Positions 6,103-52,543 of a stretch of 64,000 nt of DNA are shown here, in pieces (positions within the stretch are counted from its first letter, which is position 1; each line of letters opens with the position of its first letter). The stretch covers positions 2,669 through 66,668 of IMG/VR virus record IMGVR_UViG_3300008740_000600; one strand, 5' to 3'. The stretch is from a virus. The notes under the pieces were generated by a model, which saw only the letters and a list, made by a program, of their open reading frames with translations, ran no database searches and was not told the origin of the DNA. The translations under genes were made by a program, and so were the position numbers.

Positions 6103-6188
6103 GCTCTTGTGGTGGAACTGGTATACACAGCAGACTTAAAATCTGCCGGCCATCGGCCATGCTGGTTCGAGTCCAGCCAGGAGCACCA
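6103..6188 (+). tRNA. tRNA-Leu(UAA)
   Basis: GCTCTTG/CAGGAGC acceptor, GCAGA-CTTAAAA-TCTGC anticodon arm, long variable arm, GGTTCGAGTCC, encoded CCA. Confidence 0.95.
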
Positions 6189-11836: not shown

Positions 11837-12436
11837 ATGGCATTAATACCAATAGTTATTGAACAGACAGCAAAAGGTGAACGTAGTTACGACATATACA
11901 GTAGACTACTTAAAGATCGTATAATAATGTTAAGTGGTGTTGTAGAAGAAAATATGGCAAATGCTGTCGTGGCTCAAATGTTATTTTTAGAAAGCCAAGA
12001 CCCTAAAGGTTTAATTACAATTTATGTAAATTCACCAGGAGGTTCTGTTACGGCAGGTATGAGCATTTATGACACTATGACATTTATTAAACCTGAGATA
12101 TCAACAGTAGTAATGGGCCAGGCTTGTTCAATGGGTTCATTATTAGCAAGTGCTGGAACAAAAGGTAAACGTTATGTATTACCTAACTCAAGACATATGA
12201 TTCATCAACCTTTAGGAAGTGCTAAAGGTCAAGCAACTGATGTTGAGATACAAGCTAATGAGTTATTACGTTGGAAGAAAGTATTAACAGAAATTTATGT
12301 TAAAACTACAGGCAAGGATTATAAAACATTAGAGTCTGATATGGAACGAGATAACTTTTTAACAGCCGACGAAGCCGTTGCTTATGGACTTGCTGATAAA
12401 ATCGTAGAGGAGAGAAAAGACGATGAAGGATCCTAA
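11837..12436 (+). CDS. clpP: ATP-dependent Clp protease proteolytic subunit
   Basis: [36 protein letters not shown]. Confidence 0.96.
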
Positions 12437-31882: not shown

Positions 31883-33067
31883 TTAAACTCCATAATCTTC
31901 CTGGTCACCTTCACGTTCAACATCTAATGTAACACAATGCCAACCGGCATCCCAAAAATGTCTATGCCTATTTGGTACATGAATCATGTCAATGCCATGC
32001 GACTTAAATGTTTTTTCAAGTTCCAAATTTTCAGCGTTTACTATTGCTGTTTTTTCATCTAACATTAATAAGTTAACATCAAATACTGTTTCTTCTACAA
32101 ACCCAACCCAATCATCTAACCAGGTTTCTACAAAGTCTGTAAACTCTGTATTATCTTCTTCACCAGGCATCCACCATTTACCTTCATTATGTCTTTTAAT
32201 TTCTAAGAAAGGTCTAACTTGATTTAAGTTACTATCTGGTAGATAAATTTTGTCCCAATTAGGAAATGATTCAGCATAATGTCCTATATCTTCTGTTGTT
32301 AATAATACGCCAGGTTTTAATACATTAAAAACAGCATCATTATGACCGCCTATGAATACACCTTTATAATTAAACTGCGGATATGCTAATTCCATATAGT
32401 CAGCAATATCTACAGCCTGTTGAGTATCACAAAAACAAGTTTTACCTACCCTAGTTAATTCTGGGGCACAAAAACCTGTCATTCTATCTGAAACAAAAGG
32501 TGTTCCTGCTTCATCTATTAATGAATCAATATCTTCTTCTTTTACACCTAACCTGCCTAGCCTATTTCTATGATTTGCTGTTGTTCTTGTAAATTTCTTT
32601 TTATCTCTAACAATAGTCCAATCAAAATCGTCACCAAACCATTTTTCAAATAAAGGAACCCAAGGTTTGGACTCAAAAGCACTACCTGTCATAACAACTT
32701 GTTTACCCATAGTAACAAAATCATCACGTGGGTTAAGAGGAGGTACAGGAAGCTGATTGCGACCTTTTTCATGCTGGCCATGTTTATCACTACCCATGCC
32801 CATTTTGCCTTCATCATCCAAGTAATCCATTATACTTGTTTTATATCCTAATTCTTCAGTAGTTGCTGTATATGTTTTTACACCACGATCTTCTACTACC
32901 TTCTTTAGGTTATCTAAATCTTCTAATGTTTCAGTAGCAATACGTTGAAGGCATTCTTTAGCCTTAGTATTCTTTACATCATTAAAAAATTCTGGTGGAT
33001 AAGTTGTACCAATTACTAATTGTTTGAGCGGTTGAAATTCGCTCCACGAATTTACATTATTTGCCAT
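31883..33067 (-). CDS. amidinotransferase (glycine/inosamine-type, pentein fold)
   Basis: SWSEFQPL, PRDD, GGHND, FDVN, RHFWDAGWHCVTLD. Confidence 0.82.
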   Translation of the reverse strand: MANNVNSWSEFQPLKQLVIGTTYPPEFFNDVKNTKAKECLQRIATETLEDLDNLKKVVEDRGVKTYTATTEELGYKTSIMDYLDDEGKMGMGSDKHGQHEKGRNQLPVPPLNPRDDFVTMGKQVVMTGSAFESKPWVPLFEKWFGDDFDWTIVRDKKKFTRTTANHRNRLGRLGVKEEDIDSLIDEAGTPFVSDRMTGFCAPELTRVGKTCFCDTQQAVDIADYMELAYPQFNYKGVFIGGHNDAVFNVLKPGVLLTTEDIGHYAESFPNWDKIYLPDSNLNQVRPFLEIKRHNEGKWWMPGEEDNTEFTDFVETWLDDWVGFVEETVFDVNLLMLDEKTAIVNAENLELEKTFKSHGIDMIHVPNRHRHFWDAGWHCVTLDVEREGDQEDYGV

Positions 33068-33422
33068 TTTCTAGTGCTTCTCTATGTTTAGTTAAATCAT
33101 CGGGGAAATCCCGGTATAGGAAATGTTGAATTGTTTCAACATCAACGTATTTATTGAACCCAACGTGTTCCTTATTGACGTTATTCTCGTTAGTTACAAC
33201 ACCAGACATAGCACTATCTAATTGTGTCATATCATTAAACTCCATATCAATACGAAAGTCTGGCATATCCATAGATCTGAACCCTAATTTCATTCTGGTA
33301 ATTCGGTATTTCTCCATTCTACCGGCTTCAACTAACTTATCTAAGAATTTAGTCATGTATCTTATGAATTCATGAGCTGTGACCTCTTCGGTGTGGTCGG
33401 CGTAAATAGTATAAACGTCCAT
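33057..33422 (-). CDS. DUF6614-like alpha/beta barrel protein
   Basis: YRITRMKLGF..MPDFRIDMEF..MTQLDSA..LYRDFPD. Confidence 0.55.
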   Translation of the reverse strand: MDVYTIYADHTEEVTAHEFIRYMTKFLDKLVEAGRMEKYRITRMKLGFRSMDMPDFRIDMEFNDMTQLDSAMSGVVTNENNVNKEHVGFNKYVDVETIQHFLYRDFPDDLTKHREALENGK

Positions 33423-33478
33423 GTAGGACCTCCTTGTATATAAGTAATTATCTGACTATATAATAGAAAAACAAATTA

Positions 33479-34165
33479 ATGAAAATCTACTACGATCATA
33501 TATACGGCACAATGGAAAAGCTAGATATCCGTTGTTCCGAAATTTTAGCAAAATACGTCAAGCCTGACGAGGAACTTAAAGCACTTGATATGGGCTTTTT
33601 ATGGCATAGTGTCGAAGGTGACTACGAACTATGGTATAACAGCCGTTCTGTAAGAGTTGATTTAAAAGTTTGGCAAGGTAAACGTAAAAAACCTGCTTGG
33701 AACAATGTTAAAGAACTCAAACGTGATGATCCTCGTTGGTTAAAAATGTATCATAGCTATATCAAAAGTAAAGATCTATATGCTTACCCAGGTGATGATG
33801 AAATTCACAAAGAAAATAAATTATTTGGTTACTTTGACGATGACGATAAACTAATAGGCTTATCTAAAATACGCGAATACCAAGGTGCTTGGGAAACGTG
33901 TGTATTTGTCCATGATCATTCCATACCTCATTTTGGTCGTATAACTTTAAACCATGAATTACATATGGCTTATACATTGGGCCATAAACATCTTTACATT
34001 GGTGGTGGTTACGAAAAAACTTGTATATACAAAGGTAAACTAAAAGGCTTTGAATACTTTGACGGTGAAAAATGGCAAAAAAATAAAGAAACGTATATTA
34101 AACTTTGTCAACGTGATAGTCTTATTCACTCTTTACAGGATCTTCATGATGTGTACGCCAATTAA
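33479..34165 (+). CDS. ATE1/Bpt-like aminoacyl-tRNA--protein transferase
   Basis: ALDMGF...SRSVRV, KLIG, FGRITLNHELHMAYTLGHKHLYIG, YK, FE...W resemble ATE_N/ATE_C. Confidence 0.6.
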   Translation: MKIYYDHIYGTMEKLDIRCSEILAKYVKPDEELKALDMGFLWHSVEGDYELWYNSRSVRVDLKVWQGKRKKPAWNNVKELKRDDPRWLKMYHSYIKSKDLYAYPGDDEIHKENKLFGYFDDDDKLIGLSKIREYQGAWETCVFVHDHSIPHFGRITLNHELHMAYTLGHKHLYIGGGYEKTCIYKGKLKGFEYFDGEKWQKNKETYIKLCQRDSLIHSLQDLHDVYAN

Positions 34166-34647
34166 CAACATCATCTAAATTTTCTTTACTCCAAACATCA
34201 TAGTAACCTTTCTTTTTAAGAAATCCACTAAACATTTGTATTTTACTTAAACGTTGCATTAGTACAATAGGATATTTCCCATTATTCATACAAACACCAT
34301 TAATAATTTCTTTATCATCTGGGTGATCTTCTAGCACTACAAAATCATTTTCCATTAAGTAATTTTCATTTGTACTTTTTACTAAACTGCTTAATAGTTC
34401 AGACGAAACACCAGGAACAAATATACAACAAACATCTATATTTTCGTCCCATTGTTCTGCTTTCTTTATTAAGTAAAGATTAATGTCCATATCAGCTACT
34501 TCAAAAGCTACTTTATTTTCAAGTATGGCTTGTTGAGCATAAGGACAAGGAGGAAAATTATTTAATAACGGGTTAGGTTGTGTAACAAACTCATCTAACC
34601 ATTTTTTTATGTAATTTGTTGCTTCTTCTAAATTAAACATCATCATA
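34122..34647 (-). CDS. DUF1415-like protein
   Basis: WLDEFV...PPCPYA, EDHP, YPIVLMQR; start approximate. Confidence 0.55.
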
Positions 34648-35649
34648 AACTCCTGGAGGAATAATACCGTTATCAACAGTTGAAAACTTCATGTCAGTTC
34701 TATCGTATACTTTTGCCCATACAATAGAATTTACCAATGTTCTTAATACCCATGATAAAGAATTTATTCTTTTATATCCCATAGTCCACCAGGCAGTTGG
34801 TTGAATTAATCTACTACCTATAATCCATAATGTATCTTTTCTTTTTTCTAACACTAATTTTTCTAATTCTTCTATAGTATGAAATGTCTCAATGTTTTCA
34901 AAATATTCTAATTCTTTTTTTGTAAATTTATAACCATCATAATAAACTAAATTAGGTAATTGGGCATTAAACAATTCATCTTGTGTTGTCCTAGTAAAAG
35001 GTATCATTTGATCTATAAAAACTGACTCCATACCTTCTGTTTTTTCTTTTGATTTAGTCCATTCAAGAAAATCATTCCTCCATTCTTTTAAGTTGCTAGT
35101 ACTTAACTCGTCATGTCCTCCCTCATAAAAATCATCTCCAACTGACAAGTCAAAATCTTTTATAACTTGAAGTTTTTCAGTTTTACATTTCTTTTCCCAC
35201 TCGTCTACTGAGTCTCCTTGAAAACAATCATTATGCTTGTAATTTAATATACAAAAAAGGTCGTGTTCTTTAGCACGGATCATCCCCCATTGTTCTGATT
35301 CTCGAATATGGTCCCAGCCTTTTTCAACATTAAACATCATAGATATAGCTTGATTAATTTTTTCCATTAAATCATAATACACGAGTATACCAGGACGTAC
35401 CCAAACAACAAAATCAAGATGGTTCTGTAAAGTTCGACATTGCCAAAGTATATTATGAAGTGGTATTTGACCGTCATTTATAATAACATTTTTACACATA
35501 TTTTCATGAAATGTTAATCTTAAATACGATTCAGTAAATCTACAAATTTCTCTAGTATTAAAATCTTGTTTAGGGGAATAAGTCATCCATATTGACTTCT
35601 CAGAAAATCTGGTGTTCATATCTGACTCTAAAATAAAATCTAATAGCAT
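34633..35649 (-). CDS. hypothetical protein
   Basis: long ORF in operon. Confidence 0.55.
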   Translation of the reverse strand: MLLDFILESDMNTRFSEKSIWMTYSPKQDFNTREICRFTESYLRLTFHENMCKNVIINDGQIPLHNILWQCRTLQNHLDFVVWVRPGILVYYDLMEKINQAISMMFNVEKGWDHIRESEQWGMIRAKEHDLFCILNYKHNDCFQGDSVDEWEKKCKTEKLQVIKDFDLSVGDDFYEGGHDELSTSNLKEWRNDFLEWTKSKEKTEGMESVFIDQMIPFTRTTQDELFNAQLPNLVYYDGYKFTKKELEYFENIETFHTIEELEKLVLEKRKDTLWIIGSRLIQPTAWWTMGYKRINSLSWVLRTLVNSIVWAKVYDRTDMKFSTVDNGIIPPGVYDDV

Positions 35650-36047
35650 ACTAAAATTGTCCCTGCCTTAAGAACACCCGGCTCTTTTCTTTCATCTTCA
35701 GGCCCGTCTTCATTTCGTATAACTTCTTCAGCTTTAAAACTATATTTTGATTCCCAAACAGTGACGTCACTAACATAAAAACATTTCCTAAAAGCATTTA
35801 CTCTTATTTCTCTAGGTGGTACTGTATTGTATAGCACTATTTTTGAAATCCCGAAATTCTTTATATGTTCTAACAGTATTTTTTTATATTTAAGAGCTGT
35901 TCCTTCTGGTGTCCAACCTTCTTCATACAATTTCAAACCTTTTCTTGGGGTTTGACTCGCTAGATTTAATAACTCTTTCTTACAAAGAAGATTTAAAGTT
36001 CTAACATAGAAATAATTGCTGGCGGTATTCTGATTAGATAAATTCAT
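35640..36047 (-). CDS. hypothetical protein
   Basis: ORF in operon. Confidence 0.45.
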   Translation of the reverse strand: MNLSNQNTASNYFYVRTLNLLCKKELLNLASQTPRKGLKLYEEGWTPEGTALKYKKILLEHIKNFGISKIVLYNTVPPREIRVNAFRKCFYVSDVTVWESKYSFKAEEVIRNEDGPEDERKEPGVLKAGTILVCY

Positions 36048-36078
36048 TCGAACTCTTTTGTTATTATACTATTAATTA

Positions 36079-37008
36079 TTACGCGGCAACTGGAGCGGCT
36101 TGAAATCTTTTACCAAAAATATTCTCAGTAAACAACGGCCAGTCAGCGTCTTTAGGATGCCATTCTTGTTTTTGTATTTTACCGTGTGAGAAATTCCAAA
36201 TCCAGCTACCAACACAACAAGCTTCAGCATAATGCCAAGCACTTGCTCCTTGTGTTGCCGGGATTCTTGTATAGTATATATCACATTGAGGAGCACCAAA
36301 TTTTACACCAACTACATTACAAAATATATCTAAGTAACTGTCTGTGTGATTATAAAACTTTTTAGCATTTCTCACAATATCTCTATATCCCCTACTCAAG
36401 TACAACCAATTCATAGTATAATCATAAGCATGATATGGAAGGTATAATGAATGTCCAATAGTTTCTGCTACATAATTTCTACTTCTTAAACTAACTTCTG
36501 TAAAACTGTCAGTACCACTATTAACAATATCCCTATATAATTCTGGATCTATATTAGGTGCTACGGCTGTTCTACCGTCCCACATATTTGGATTCATTCC
36601 TATATAATAATCTAGTCGATCAACTGTTGAAAAATCTAATGTCATAACTGCCGACATCATATCCATTAATCCTGAAAATACACCAACTCCATCTACTATA
36701 TTCTTACCAGTACCATGAAACATATCAGTTCTATTGATCGTTATAAGCGTATTATGGTCGGGTAAAGCGTTGGCTATAGCATGAGTTGTACCAAAATCAC
36801 AATTAGTAACAATATAGTCGTGATTTTCAGCTATTTCCGTTGGTGTGTAGTTAGCAAATGGTAAAGCGCCTTGGGATAGTGTTTTTCCAACTTGGGTATC
36901 ATCAAACCAAGTACAAATTACATCAGTCGTAAATCTATTTTTCTGCCTAGTAATAACATTCCTTACAGCAGACCCTAATTGACCGTTACATACTATTGCT
37001 ATCTTCAT
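36079..37008 (-). CDS. divergent saccharopine dehydrogenase/carboxyspermidine synthase-like Rossmann protein
   Basis: MKIAIVCNGQLGSAV; DGVGVFSGL resembles the G(L/F)xPG motif. Confidence 0.45.
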   Translation of the reverse strand: MKIAIVCNGQLGSAVRNVITRQKNRFTTDVICTWFDDTQVGKTLSQGALPFANYTPTEIAENHDYIVTNCDFGTTHAIANALPDHNTLITINRTDMFHGTGKNIVDGVGVFSGLMDMMSAVMTLDFSTVDRLDYYIGMNPNMWDGRTAVAPNIDPELYRDIVNSGTDSFTEVSLRSRNYVAETIGHSLYLPYHAYDYTMNWLYLSRGYRDIVRNAKKFYNHTDSYLDIFCNVVGVKFGAPQCDIYYTRIPATQGASAWHYAEACCVGSWIWNFSHGKIQKQEWHPKDADWPLFTENIFGKRFQAAPVAA

Positions 37009-48221: not shown

Positions 48222-48530
48222 TTACTCCGGTTCTACTTTTACTTGTAATGGGAAGCCTCTGCCTCTTGCTAAGACTGTAACCTCAATACCTTTTTGTTCA
48301 GCAAGTTCAAATGGCAAAACTGCTACAACCGCCGATCCATTATCATGAATTTTTACTGTAATCTCTTCAGCACCTTGTGGTGTATAACCAAAAATATCTA
48401 GAAGTGTTTCAATAACAAACTCCATTGTAGTAAGTTCGTCATTTATATAGATAACTTTATATAATCCAGGTTCTTTGATTTTTTGGCGTTGCTCTACTTT
48501 TACTTTTTCTTTAATGTCTGTGTCAGCCAT
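48222..48530 (-). CDS. clpS: Clp adaptor ClpS (N-recognin)
   Basis: YKVIYINDELTTMEFV, IHDNGSAVV, AEQK, FPL; start at MADT after GAGG. Confidence 0.9.
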   Translation of the reverse strand: MADTDIKEKVKVEQRQKIKEPGLYKVIYINDELTTMEFVIETLLDIFGYTPQGAEEITVKIHDNGSAVVAVLPFELAEQKGIEVTVLARGRGFPLQVKVEPE

Positions 48531-51095: not shown

Positions 51096-51395
51096 TTAAT
51101 ACATTCTCTTTTTAGATTGTCCCCAAGCCATTTCACTTTCACGTTGCTTTTTTAACCAACGATTACGTCCTGCTTTTTTGGCTAGCCTTCTCTTCTCACT
51201 TGGTTTGACAAAATATTGTCTATCTCTAACTTCTTGTAAAGTTCCTTCAGCTTGAAGTTTCTTTTTAAGTTTTCTTAATGCCTTGTTGACATCATTGTTA
51301 CGGACTTCAACTGTTAGTCCACCTTTTCCGTAAGAGTCTACTTTATCTCTTTTGATTTGGAAATTTCTATACCCGCCTCTATTACCTACAAACAT
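51096..51395 (-). CDS. rpsU: ribosomal protein bS21
   Basis: VEVRNNDVNKALRKLKKK...RQYFVKPSEKRR. Confidence 0.88.
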   Translation of the reverse strand: MFVGNRGGYRNFQIKRDKVDSYGKGGLTVEVRNNDVNKALRKLKKKLQAEGTLQEVRDRQYFVKPSEKRRLAKKAGRNRWLKKQRESEMAWGQSKKRMY

Positions 51396-52543
51396 TATAC
51401 CTCCTGTACGTCTGTTTCGTTAATTGTTACTTTTTTACCTTTTAATTGATCTAGTTCATAATAGTATTCTAGTAATGTACTTTCCAAAATACCTTTTAAT
51501 GCTCTAGCACCTACCTTATATTGTAACGCAAGATCCACGATCTTGTCAAGTGCTTTATCCGAAAATTCCAATTGAACTTCATCAACATTGAAATAAAATC
51601 GGGTTTGATCAATAAGATTATTATCCACCTTGGATAATATTTGCTTTAATTCAGGTTTAGTTAATTCTTTAGTTTGGACTACAACTGGGAATCTTCCAAC
51701 AAATTCTGGGATCATTCCAAAATTAACCAAATCACTGGTAATCATTTTTCTGTCAATTTTACCATCACTATTAAACCCAATTGAGTTTGTTCTAGTTTTA
51801 TCCAATCCAACAAATGCTCCACTTCCAATAAACAAAATCTTACTAGTATCAACTTCTAGCATTTCTTGTTGTGGGTGTTTCCTTCCACCTTGCGGTGCTA
51901 CTCTAACTTTAGTACCTTCAACAAGTTTCAATAATGCTTGTTGTACACCCTCGCCTGATACGTCTCTAGTAATTGAGACATTCTCGCCTTTACGACCTAT
52001 TTTGTCAATCTCATCTAAAAATATAATACCTTGTTCTGCTCTAGCAACATTAAAATCTACTTTTAATAATAATGAGCTAATAATACTTTCAACATCGTCA
52101 CCAACATAACCACTTTCTGTTAAACTTGTAGCATCAGCAATTACAATAGGTACATCTAAAAACTTGGCTATTTGCTTTGCCATAAAAGTTTTACCACTAC
52201 CTGTTGGACCTATTATTAGTTGATTATTTTTTTCAACTTCGCCAGCTTGATCAAACATCAAACGCTTGTAATGATTAACTACACCAACAGCCATATGACG
52301 TTTTGCTTTATCTTGTCCAACCATTGTGTTGTTTAAAAAGGCAACAATTTCTTTTGCTGTTTTTGGTTTTAATTGTTTAAGTCCTGCTTTAGATTTTTCA
52401 TCATTCAAGACTTTATTACATAGTGCTATACATTCATCACATATACCAACGTCGTCAGCAATTATAATTTTATATACTTGTCCTTTTTCTTTACCGCAAA
52501 AGTTACAGCGATGAACCTGTGGTAGTTCTTCAATTTTAGTCAT
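51395..52543 (-). CDS. clpX: ATP-dependent Clp protease ATP-binding subunit ClpX
   Basis: Zn finger CNFC..CDEC, GPTGSGKT, GYVGDDVE, RDVSGEGVQQALLK, IGF loop. Confidence 0.95.
   Translation of the reverse strand: MTKIEELPQVHRCNFCGKEKGQVYKIIIADDVGICDECIALCNKVLNDEKSKAGLKQLKPKTAKEIVAFLNNTMVGQDKAKRHMAVGVVNHYKRLMFDQAGEVEKNNQLIIGPTGSGKTFMAKQIAKFLDVPIVIADATSLTESGYVGDDVESIISSLLLKVDFNVARAEQGIIFLDEIDKIGRKGENVSITRDVSGEGVQQALLKLVEGTKVRVAPQGGRKHPQQEMLEVDTSKILFIGSGAFVGLDKTRTNSIGFNSDGKIDRKMITSDLVNFGMIPEFVGRFPVVVQTKELTKPELKQILSKVDNNLIDQTRFYFNVDEVQLEFSDKALDKIVDLALQYKVGARALKGILESTLLEYYYELDQLKGKKVTINETDVQEV

Follow-up and report, generated by a model that had tools for sequence, protein, structure and literature searches.

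The known aminoacyl-tRNA transferases of the ATE1/Bpt type are cellular enzymes that write N-degrons. The solved eukaryotic ATE1 proteins (K. lactis, 7wfx and 7wg1; yeast, 7tif and 8e3s; human, 8tzv) are about 500 aa long, and for the K. lactis enzyme, klAte1, passages of PMC9351520 describe a C4 zinc site formed by Cys23, 26, 95 and 96 and an essential residue, R80, which reads acidic N-termini; the same passages give the Leu-transferring Bpt of V. vulnificus a hydrophobic donor pocket composed of Ala168, Ala185, Gln189 and Leu201. In the argolaphos pathway of Streptomyces monomycini, as portrayed in sections of PMC12866846, AglC makes AMPn-Arg with ArgRS, tRNA, Arg and ATP, and AglA, a protein of the YqcI/YcgG "sandwich-fold" whose haem is ligated by Cys44, N-hydroxylates the Arg of this product; the genes of the argolaphos cluster, as given in a part of PMC8976061, include one of the YqcI/YcgG family and others for pfam13480 GNAT "aminoacyl tRNA ligases". 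Here, we examine a 64-kb stretch of viral DNA (positions 2,669 to 66,668 of the IMG/VR virus record IMGVR_UViG_3300008740_000600, hereafter the window) and within it an ORF of 228 aa with an ATG start (33479..34165, + strand) that encodes an ATE-like aminoacyl-tRNA transferase homologue of a Cys-less branch of the ATE1/Bpt superfamily. Our literature search turned up no account of a viral transferase of the ATE1/Bpt type. We show that the gene is linked to that of a small protein resembling the Cys-ligated haem enzymes, and we tentatively suggest that the two carry out an AglC/AglA-like chemistry.

The sequence-only reading of this DNA had noted in the ORF a set of ATE_C-like motifs without the N-terminal Cys cluster, and the translation bears this out: KLIG lies at residues 124-127, followed by G153..T156-L157..E160...A164...G168..H171-L-Y-I-G175, then by Y184-K185 and F191-E192...W199, and the four Cys (C19, C141, C182 and C210) are scattered, with no CxxC and none placed as in the ATE_N cluster. 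By itself the protein falls below every curated cut-off; a single-sequence Pfam search returned DUF5479 alone (E 0.012), the NCBIfam model NF002344 "arginyltransferase" gave E 0.0019 and 17.9 bits against a cut-off of 252, and nothing useful came from phmmer against the PDB, from PHROGs or from a profile of close homologues (A1). When 1.84 billion cluster representatives were scanned exhaustively with HMMER, 125 relatives emerged at E<=1e-3, the family thus occupying 125 clusters at 50% identity. From these we built an alignment (A2) of 83 rows, comprising the window protein, a 72% identical relative encoded on a 408-kb contig (P0008) and 81 of the 125 representatives; the remaining 44, fragments or partial matches recognised by eye, were dropped. 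Pfam ATE_C (PF04377) is matched at E<=0.01 by 49 of the 83 members (best 1e-12), NF002344 by 36 (best 1.2e-16) and PF13480 (Acetyltransf_6) by six; neither ATE_N (PF04376) nor FemXAB/MurM (PF02388) is matched by any of them. The GNAT core of ATE_C is therefore recognisable at the level of the family, and the A2 profile also finds the solved ATE1 chains (7wfx, E 4.7e-8; 8e3s, E 1.4e-7).

The predicted fold leads to the same superfamily. An AlphaFold2 model made from A2 (pLDDT 96, pTM 0.91) was placed by Foldseek closest to human and K. lactis ATE1 (7.4e-6 to 4e-5), followed by FemX (1xf8, E 5e-5), the N-myristoyltransferases and L/F-transferase (Aat, 2cxa, E 1.4e-4). FemX, which ranks under ATE1, also matches over fewer residues; it and MurM, like Aat, have the same tandem-GNAT fold class of aminoacyl-tRNA transferase as the phage protein. 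Despite the missing Cys cluster the N-terminal part superposes on ATE1 as well, residues 1-215 of the model corresponding to residues 9-334 of the chain. ATE1 thus comes first by both sequence profile and fold, ahead of FemX, MprF and L/F-transferase, and the best structural match is not the FemX, lipid or small-molecule GNAT that the sequence-only reading had named as the outcome fatal to its proposal. The ATE1/Bpt homology is real, though remodelled, and is stronger than could have been known from the letters of a single sequence.

The residues of the active site were mapped by aligning the A2 profile to 7wfx, using the residues named in passages of PMC9351520; the chain numbering of 7wfx equals the native numbering plus 4, as confirmed by the letters at S255, W260, S273, E277, Y289, Y303 and K304. 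The catalytic Tyr-Lys of klAte1 (Y303/K304) falls on Y184/K185 of the window protein; the Lys is present in 82 of the 83 members and the Tyr in 69, with Trp in 11. The pocket that holds the Arg side chain in klAte1 (S255/S273/E277/Y289) falls on T140/T156/E160/L172, and Glu is found at the E160 column in 71 of the 83. At this column the canonical Bpt of Acinetobacter has Gln (hhalign), and the window protein does not have the hydrophobic donor pocket of Bpt. The donor pocket looks ATE1-like and suited to a basic donor rather than Bpt-like, and because it carries the Glu of ATE1 where Bpt has Gln, Leu is not the predicted donor; the earlier suggestion of Leu transfer is not borne out, E160 being the equivalent of ATE1 E277.

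The N-terminal region also differs. The C4 zinc site is absent, and R80, the first Arg of GWRRSG in klAte1, would have as its counterpart L41 in G39-F40-L41-W42, an assignment made by counting along the motif in a stretch outside the profile alignments; this position is Leu in 48 of the 83 members, and Arg is not among its six commonest residues. An hhalign comparison with canonical Bpt starts only at W52 and aligns R56 to a Bpt Cys, and both R56 (81 of 83) and R59 (82 of 83) are near-invariant. The phage protein is less than half the length of ATE1, from which it also differs in the lack of the Cys cluster and of the C-terminal extension, in the probable Leu at the place of R80, in a fourth pocket residue that is Leu as in Bpt, in its viral origin and in its pairing with a haem-protein-like gene. 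Bpt is similar to it in length, in a homologous GNAT core (hhalign E 6.5e-11 over 159 columns) and in Leu201, the equivalent of L172 in the pocket set out in that portion of PMC9351520, and is unlike it in that the first 51 phage residues are unaligned, that the phage protein has no Cys cluster, that Glu replaces Gln and that the phage gene does not lie beside aat.

To characterize the genetic context we clustered the ORFs of 80 related loci together with those of the window and counted neighbours over the 51 loci that extend at least 2 kb to either side of the gene. They reveal a three-gene module in which a divergent DUF6614 gene is followed by the ATE-like gene and then by a convergent gene of about 170 codons for a DUF6875-like protein. 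In the window, the DUF6614 protein (121 aa; PF20319, E 7.7e-24) is encoded at 33057..33422 (- strand) and the DUF6875-like partner at 34122..34640 (- strand), with 172 aa if read from the ATG at 34640; its mechanically defined ORF extends further, to a TTG at 34676. Of the 51 loci, 39 have the DUF6875-like gene no more than 1.5 kb from the ATE-like gene, and 25 have the DUF6614 gene at such a distance. The pairing of the ATE-like and DUF6875-like genes survives changes of order and strand (e.g. L006, L024 and L037-L042), and it is also kept in lineages whose other neighbours are wholly different, such as that of the window itself. In two genomes that had been selected for ClpS (L171 and L172), the genes form a tight co-directional operon in which the DUF6875-like gene is followed by a short ATE-like gene of 144-146 codons and then by DUF6614. 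These short forms, two of the four such matches having been inspected, have neither the N-terminal domain nor the C-terminal W.G..W tail (L171, 2092-3361, + strand; L172, 2195-3467, - strand); the two phage records are 91-99% complete and both also carry ClpS and ClpA. In the divergent intergenic region of the window (33423..33478), as read from its sequence, a TATAAGTA box (33438-33445) and a TATAAT (33458-33463) precede the ATG of the ATE-like gene and form a putative promoter; no obvious Shine-Dalgarno sequence stands before this ATG, and a strong AAGGAGG precedes the DUF6614 start on the other strand.

The partner was studied in an alignment (A4) of 29 of the 42 distinct sequences, from which fragments and ORFs with long spurious N-termini had been dropped. 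Invariant in it are Cys32-Pro33, within PPCPYA, and D105-H106-P107, together with other residues. Pfam DUF6875 (PF21780) is matched at E<=0.05 by 27 of the 29 members (best 9.7e-7) and DUF1415 by two, the window's own copy reaching 17.4 bits, which is below the DUF6875 cut-off of 24.5. The DUF6875 proteins have been renamed cytochrome P422 and are described, in a part of bioRxiv 10.64898/2025.12.11.692455, as Cys-ligated haem enzymes that hydroxylate free Trp and have the haem motif RxGxVCP. A model of the partner (pLDDT 91) gave no Foldseek match in the PDB at E<=0.001; AglA was singled out only by a VIA search, which is independent of Foldseek. The partner family is large (2,209 proteins at E<=1e-3), and distant homologues with 22-28% identity, annotated "hypothetical protein", occur in seven GenBank phage records that include cultured cyanophages, Puniceispirillum phage HMO-2011 and a roseophage; none of the seven carries an ATE-like gene. 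In one of them, Synechococcus phage S-SCSM2R (L254, 2480-2947), the homologue adjoins a 2OG-Fe(II) oxygenase gene just before the baseplate wedge genes. The DUF6614 family is compact, with a mean column identity of 52% in its alignment (A5); its clusters in the ESM Atlas are 100% viral, and tblastn found none in 50,697 GenBank phage records.

Beside the module in this lineage only (seven of the 80 related loci) lies the gene for an amidinotransferase homologue of 394 aa (31883..33067, - strand). Its sequence matches in the PDB are L-arginine:glycine amidinotransferase (2jdx, E 7.3e-10) and HsvA (5wpi, E 5.1e-8), and its C-terminal AGWHCVT, in the region of the catalytic-Cys motif, aligns with GGFHCWT of the structure. 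As judged from these matches, such an enzyme would use Arg and would belong to an arginine or guanidino chemistry. The gene lies downstream of a radical-SAM-like gene, and together with its neighbours it looks like a guanidino/polyamine gene island.

The reading that we put forward, and to which we give slightly less than an even chance, is that of an AglC/AglA-like, two-enzyme chemistry on an amine acceptor with a basic amino acid as donor. The ORF would be an aminoacyl-tRNA-dependent aminoacyltransferase of the ATE1/Bpt/Fem (tandem-GNAT) kind, working in a three-gene module with DUF6614 and a small Cys-ligated haem oxygenase-like protein of DUF6875/P422-like type and AglA fold, and it would not be a dedicated writer for the phage ClpS. 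A basic amino acid, most likely Arg to judge from the conserved pocket Glu, would be moved from its tRNA to the amino group of the acceptor, and the haem partner would then hydroxylate the product or, alternatively, prepare the acceptor. What the analysis shows is the homology, the fold, the conservation of catalytic and pocket residues and the linkage of the genes; we infer the dependence on tRNA, the donor, the binding of haem, the order of the steps and the acceptor. What we count in favour of the reading as a whole are the Tyr-Lys and the Glu pocket, the linkage in 39 and 25 of the 51 loci and the adjoining amidinotransferase homologue. The likeness to the argolaphos system that we draw on is one of described chemistry and of gene pairing, and it has limits; the portion of PMC8976061 cited above lists pfam13480 GNATs, PF13480 is matched by only the six phage-family members, and unlike the argolaphos cluster the phage loci are without phosphonate genes. 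If this reading is true, the module gives these phages a tRNA-dependent way of modifying an amino acid, probably Arg, that has not been described before.

Several considerations weigh against this proposal. The assignment of Arg as donor leans mainly on one conserved Glu, and the best whole-length structural match is ATE1 and not a small-molecule transferase. The DUF6875-like partner is missing from 12 of the 51 loci, most of them in one lineage that has an ordinary GNAT gene upstream, and a cyanophage without an ATE-like gene has a distant partner homologue at a similar baseplate-proximal place. Portal, gp46/47-like and baseplate genes mark many of the loci as T4-like, and some of the gene order that they share may therefore reflect common descent and not function. 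Finally, because the phage lineage possesses a complete ClpS/ClpA/ClpP set, a protein N-terminus could also be the acceptor.

This Clp set had been invoked, with a tRNA-Leu, as the remainder of an N-degron pathway, and in the window all of its proposed members are confirmed by Pfam, NCBIfam and ARAGORN. The ClpS adaptor gene (48222..48530, - strand; PF02617, E 4.2e-23, 81.4 bits against a cut-off of 23) starts at the ATG at 48530, residue 5 of a GTG frame, and is 14 kb away from the ATE-like gene. The ClpP protease subunit is encoded at 11837..12436 (+ strand; PF00574, E 4.2e-79; NF001368, E 2.2e-92, above cut-off) and the ClpX unfoldase, with its N-terminal zinc finger, at 51395..52543 (- strand; AAA_2, 2.1e-30; zf-C4_ClpX, 7.7e-11; NF003745, E 7.1e-139, above cut-off). 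The phage ClpS aligns without gaps to residues 14-103 of E. coli ClpS. Identical between the two are N34, D35, T38, M40 and H66, which we take to be the N-degron pocket, and E79, E82 and K84, presumably the residues of ClpA docking; D36 is changed to E, and N34, D35, T38, E79 and E82 are invariant across eight phage ClpS proteins. On this alignment the pocket of the phage ClpS looks intact. ClpS normally pairs with ClpA rather than with ClpX, and the concern raised on this account is eased; a ClpA-type protein was found in all seven related records that are at least 86% complete (G005, G007 and five of five further ones), although not in three fragments of or near the window lineage (G000, G003 and G020). 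The ClpA of G005 (338 kb, complete) and of G007 has a Clp_N domain, two AAA modules and a D2-small domain, and its match to TIGR02639 (E 4.2e-252, 838 bits) is below the cut-off of 993. In both records it adjoins a DnaJ gene, and in the loci L082 (1328-4465, - strand) and L083 (1281-4405, - strand) a ClpA-type gene, of 744 and 761 aa respectively, directly follows a DnaJ gene with J and DnaJ_C domains, an adjacency equivalent to that of gp292/gp293 of Agrobacterium phage Atu_ph07 in the part of PMC6102473 that describes them.

Such a Clp set is not new, having already been described for the Rak2-like jumbo phages (portions of PMC6102473 and PMC7824862), and the idea that a phage ClpS may feed the host ClpAP is likewise in print (a passage of PMC7824862). 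Atu_ph07 has ClpX, ClpA beside DnaJ, ClpP and ClpS, of which the window has ClpX, ClpP and ClpS, its ClpX being 49% identical to that of Atu_ph07. The tRNA-Leu(UAA) at 6103..6188 (+ strand, anticodon taa), one of four tRNAs that ARAGORN finds in the window with tRNA-Ala, tRNA-Thr and tRNA-Met, is probably outside the system. Its presence is explained by codon usage, as TTA is the dominant Leu codon, with a share of 57% in the 40 ORFs that are 200 aa or longer, and since the donor pocket is not Leu-like either, we rejected it as a dedicated donor.

The ATE-like family is a large one in uncultured jumbo phages, at least 529 stretches of IMG/VR encoding a relative. Many of these relatives are on contigs of 100-340 kb, for which the CheckV estimates imply a genome size of about 350 kb, and among their neighbours are gp46/47-like genes and those of a T4-type portal and a T4 baseplate protein. 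The record of the window (66,668 b; GC of the window, 29-38%) is rated 19% complete by CheckV and is therefore a fragment of a phage of about 350 kb. Unlike the Clp set of the Rak2-like phages, the ATE-like gene was found in none of the 50,697 GenBank phage records (tblastn at E<=1e-3, with the window protein and a T4-like member as queries). Its cellular relatives are Cys-less proteins of about 260 aa in the Bacteroidota (Saprospiraceae; Spirosomataceae such as Emticicia and Lacihabitans; Cytophagales), which are annotated "GNAT family N-acetyltransferase" or "arginyltransferase" and are encoded in 151 stretches of GTDB, where each species is represented by one genome. The relationships rest on hhalign E-values; the phage and Bacteroidota families align over their full length (E 8.2e-40, 229 columns, about 19% identity), and in a like-for-like comparison A2 is far nearer to one Bacteroidota member, P0136 (6e-27 over 232 columns), than to the canonical Acinetobacter Bpt (6.5e-11 over 159 columns). 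At the N-terminus the phage and Bacteroidota proteins share the motifs MKIxF..., GF/GW and RSxR(V/I), and at the C-terminus FE(W/F)(W/F)xGxxW. To judge by sequence, then, a Cys-less ATE_C branch is common to jumbo T4-related phages and Bacteroidota.

The rival explanations can be weighed on these grounds. The first is the pathway of the sequence-only reading, in which the phage would write, read and execute degradation tags; the transferase would add a destabilising or pro-destabilising residue to host or phage N-termini, which ClpS would hand to the phage or host ClpA-ClpP. A fold that is nearest to ATE1 over its whole length, N-terminal domain included, the retained Y184 and K185, the conserved residues of the presumed ClpS pocket and docking site, the presence of ClpA in the near-complete relatives and two Arg, R56 and R59, that could bind an acidic group all speak for it. 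The pattern of co-occurrence divides. Among the 81, the 26 loci whose contigs reach 61 kb or more were examined together with G000; ClpS was found in 10 of these 27 larger ATE-bearing records and in five of the seven that are at least 50% complete, yet in none of the 81 loci does it lie within 10 kb of the ATE-like gene. In the reverse direction at least 498 viral stretches encode ClpS, and of 80 ClpS loci the 19 on contigs of at least 100 kb contain an ATE-like profile match in only four cases (three of the 10 that are 60% complete or more, and two of the five that reach 90%), all of them the short forms, which lack the N-domain and still keep their partners. Three of the five near-complete genomes (G030, G031 and G035, 92-100% complete) have ClpS and ClpA and no ATE-like gene. 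For these reasons we regard the Clp set as a feature of the phage group and the transferase module as a separate accessory. The pocket raises a further difficulty. ClpS is not known to recognise an N-terminal Arg or Lys, so that with an Arg donor the host Aat would have to attach a further Leu or Phe; a phage Aat (PF03588) that might bridge this gap was sought and found in none of five phage records. The missing Cys/Zn cluster, the Leu that motif counting places at R80, the 51 residues unaligned with Bpt, the DUF6875-like and DUF6614 neighbours and the position of the closest cellular relatives away from aat and clpS (canonical Acinetobacter bpt stands directly after aat) tell against it as well. 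A dedicated tag-and-destroy pathway is possible, although it is not the best-supported reading and we consider it unlikely; if true, bacterial N-degron proteolysis would have its first writer from a virus. A more elaborate version, which we hold to be distinctly improbable, would make the writer oxidation-gated: an N-terminal residue would be oxidised by the haem-thiolate partner, which might instead be a sensor of O2 or haem, the Cys-less ATE-like enzyme would then add Arg to the oxidised residue, and the product would pass to the phage ClpS-ClpA-ClpP directly or after the action of host Aat. The eukaryotic logic of Cys oxidation and arginylation would thus have been rebuilt in a bacteriophage, and the result, if true, would be a programmable removal of host defence or regulatory proteins. 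Whether it performs the AglC/AglA-like chemistry or writes N-degrons, the phage enzyme is small, confidently folded in prediction and open to assay.

The Bacteroidota relatives suggest another role, in which the phage enzyme, as they themselves probably do, would aminoacylate a host lipid or peptidoglycan precursor and so remodel the wall during infection. Their genes (loci L173-L252, e.g. L216, 6860-8777, in Emticicia aquatilis) occur in 21 of 79 cases in the order FtsW, GT28 (MurG-type), the gene itself, an unknown gene and FtsA, adjoin MreB-MreC in 11 and follow an S13 D-Ala-D-Ala carboxypeptidase (PBP4) and an MR_MLE enzyme in 10. As a by-product, this analysis suggests that the bacterial family may carry out a Fem-like, tRNA-dependent reaction of peptidoglycan synthesis that has so far gone unrecognised; the phage family is far closer to it than to canonical Bpt. 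This function is itself deduced from neighbouring genes, however, and the phage and bacterial proteins have only about 19% identity; E160 aligns to a variable position without the Glu (Ser in P0136), and none of 80 bacterial loci has a DUF6875-like gene, DUF6614 or ClpS within 8 kb. We therefore think a Fem-like envelope role rather improbable. Least probable of all would be a tRNA-independent acyl-CoA GNAT or a catalytically dead protein, for which one might cite the short forms that consist of the GNAT core alone and the ordinary GNAT gene that adjoins in one lineage. The profiles match ATE_C and ATE1 specifically, the Lys common to ATE1 and FemX is nearly invariant, and the strong conservation of the family across its many viral stretches suggests that its function is under selection.

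Downstream of the partner gene, the window carries on the - strand (34633-37008) three further ORFs of 338, 135 and 309 aa. None of them has a Pfam match at E<=0.01, and they are common only to the three closest relatives of the window (L002-L004).

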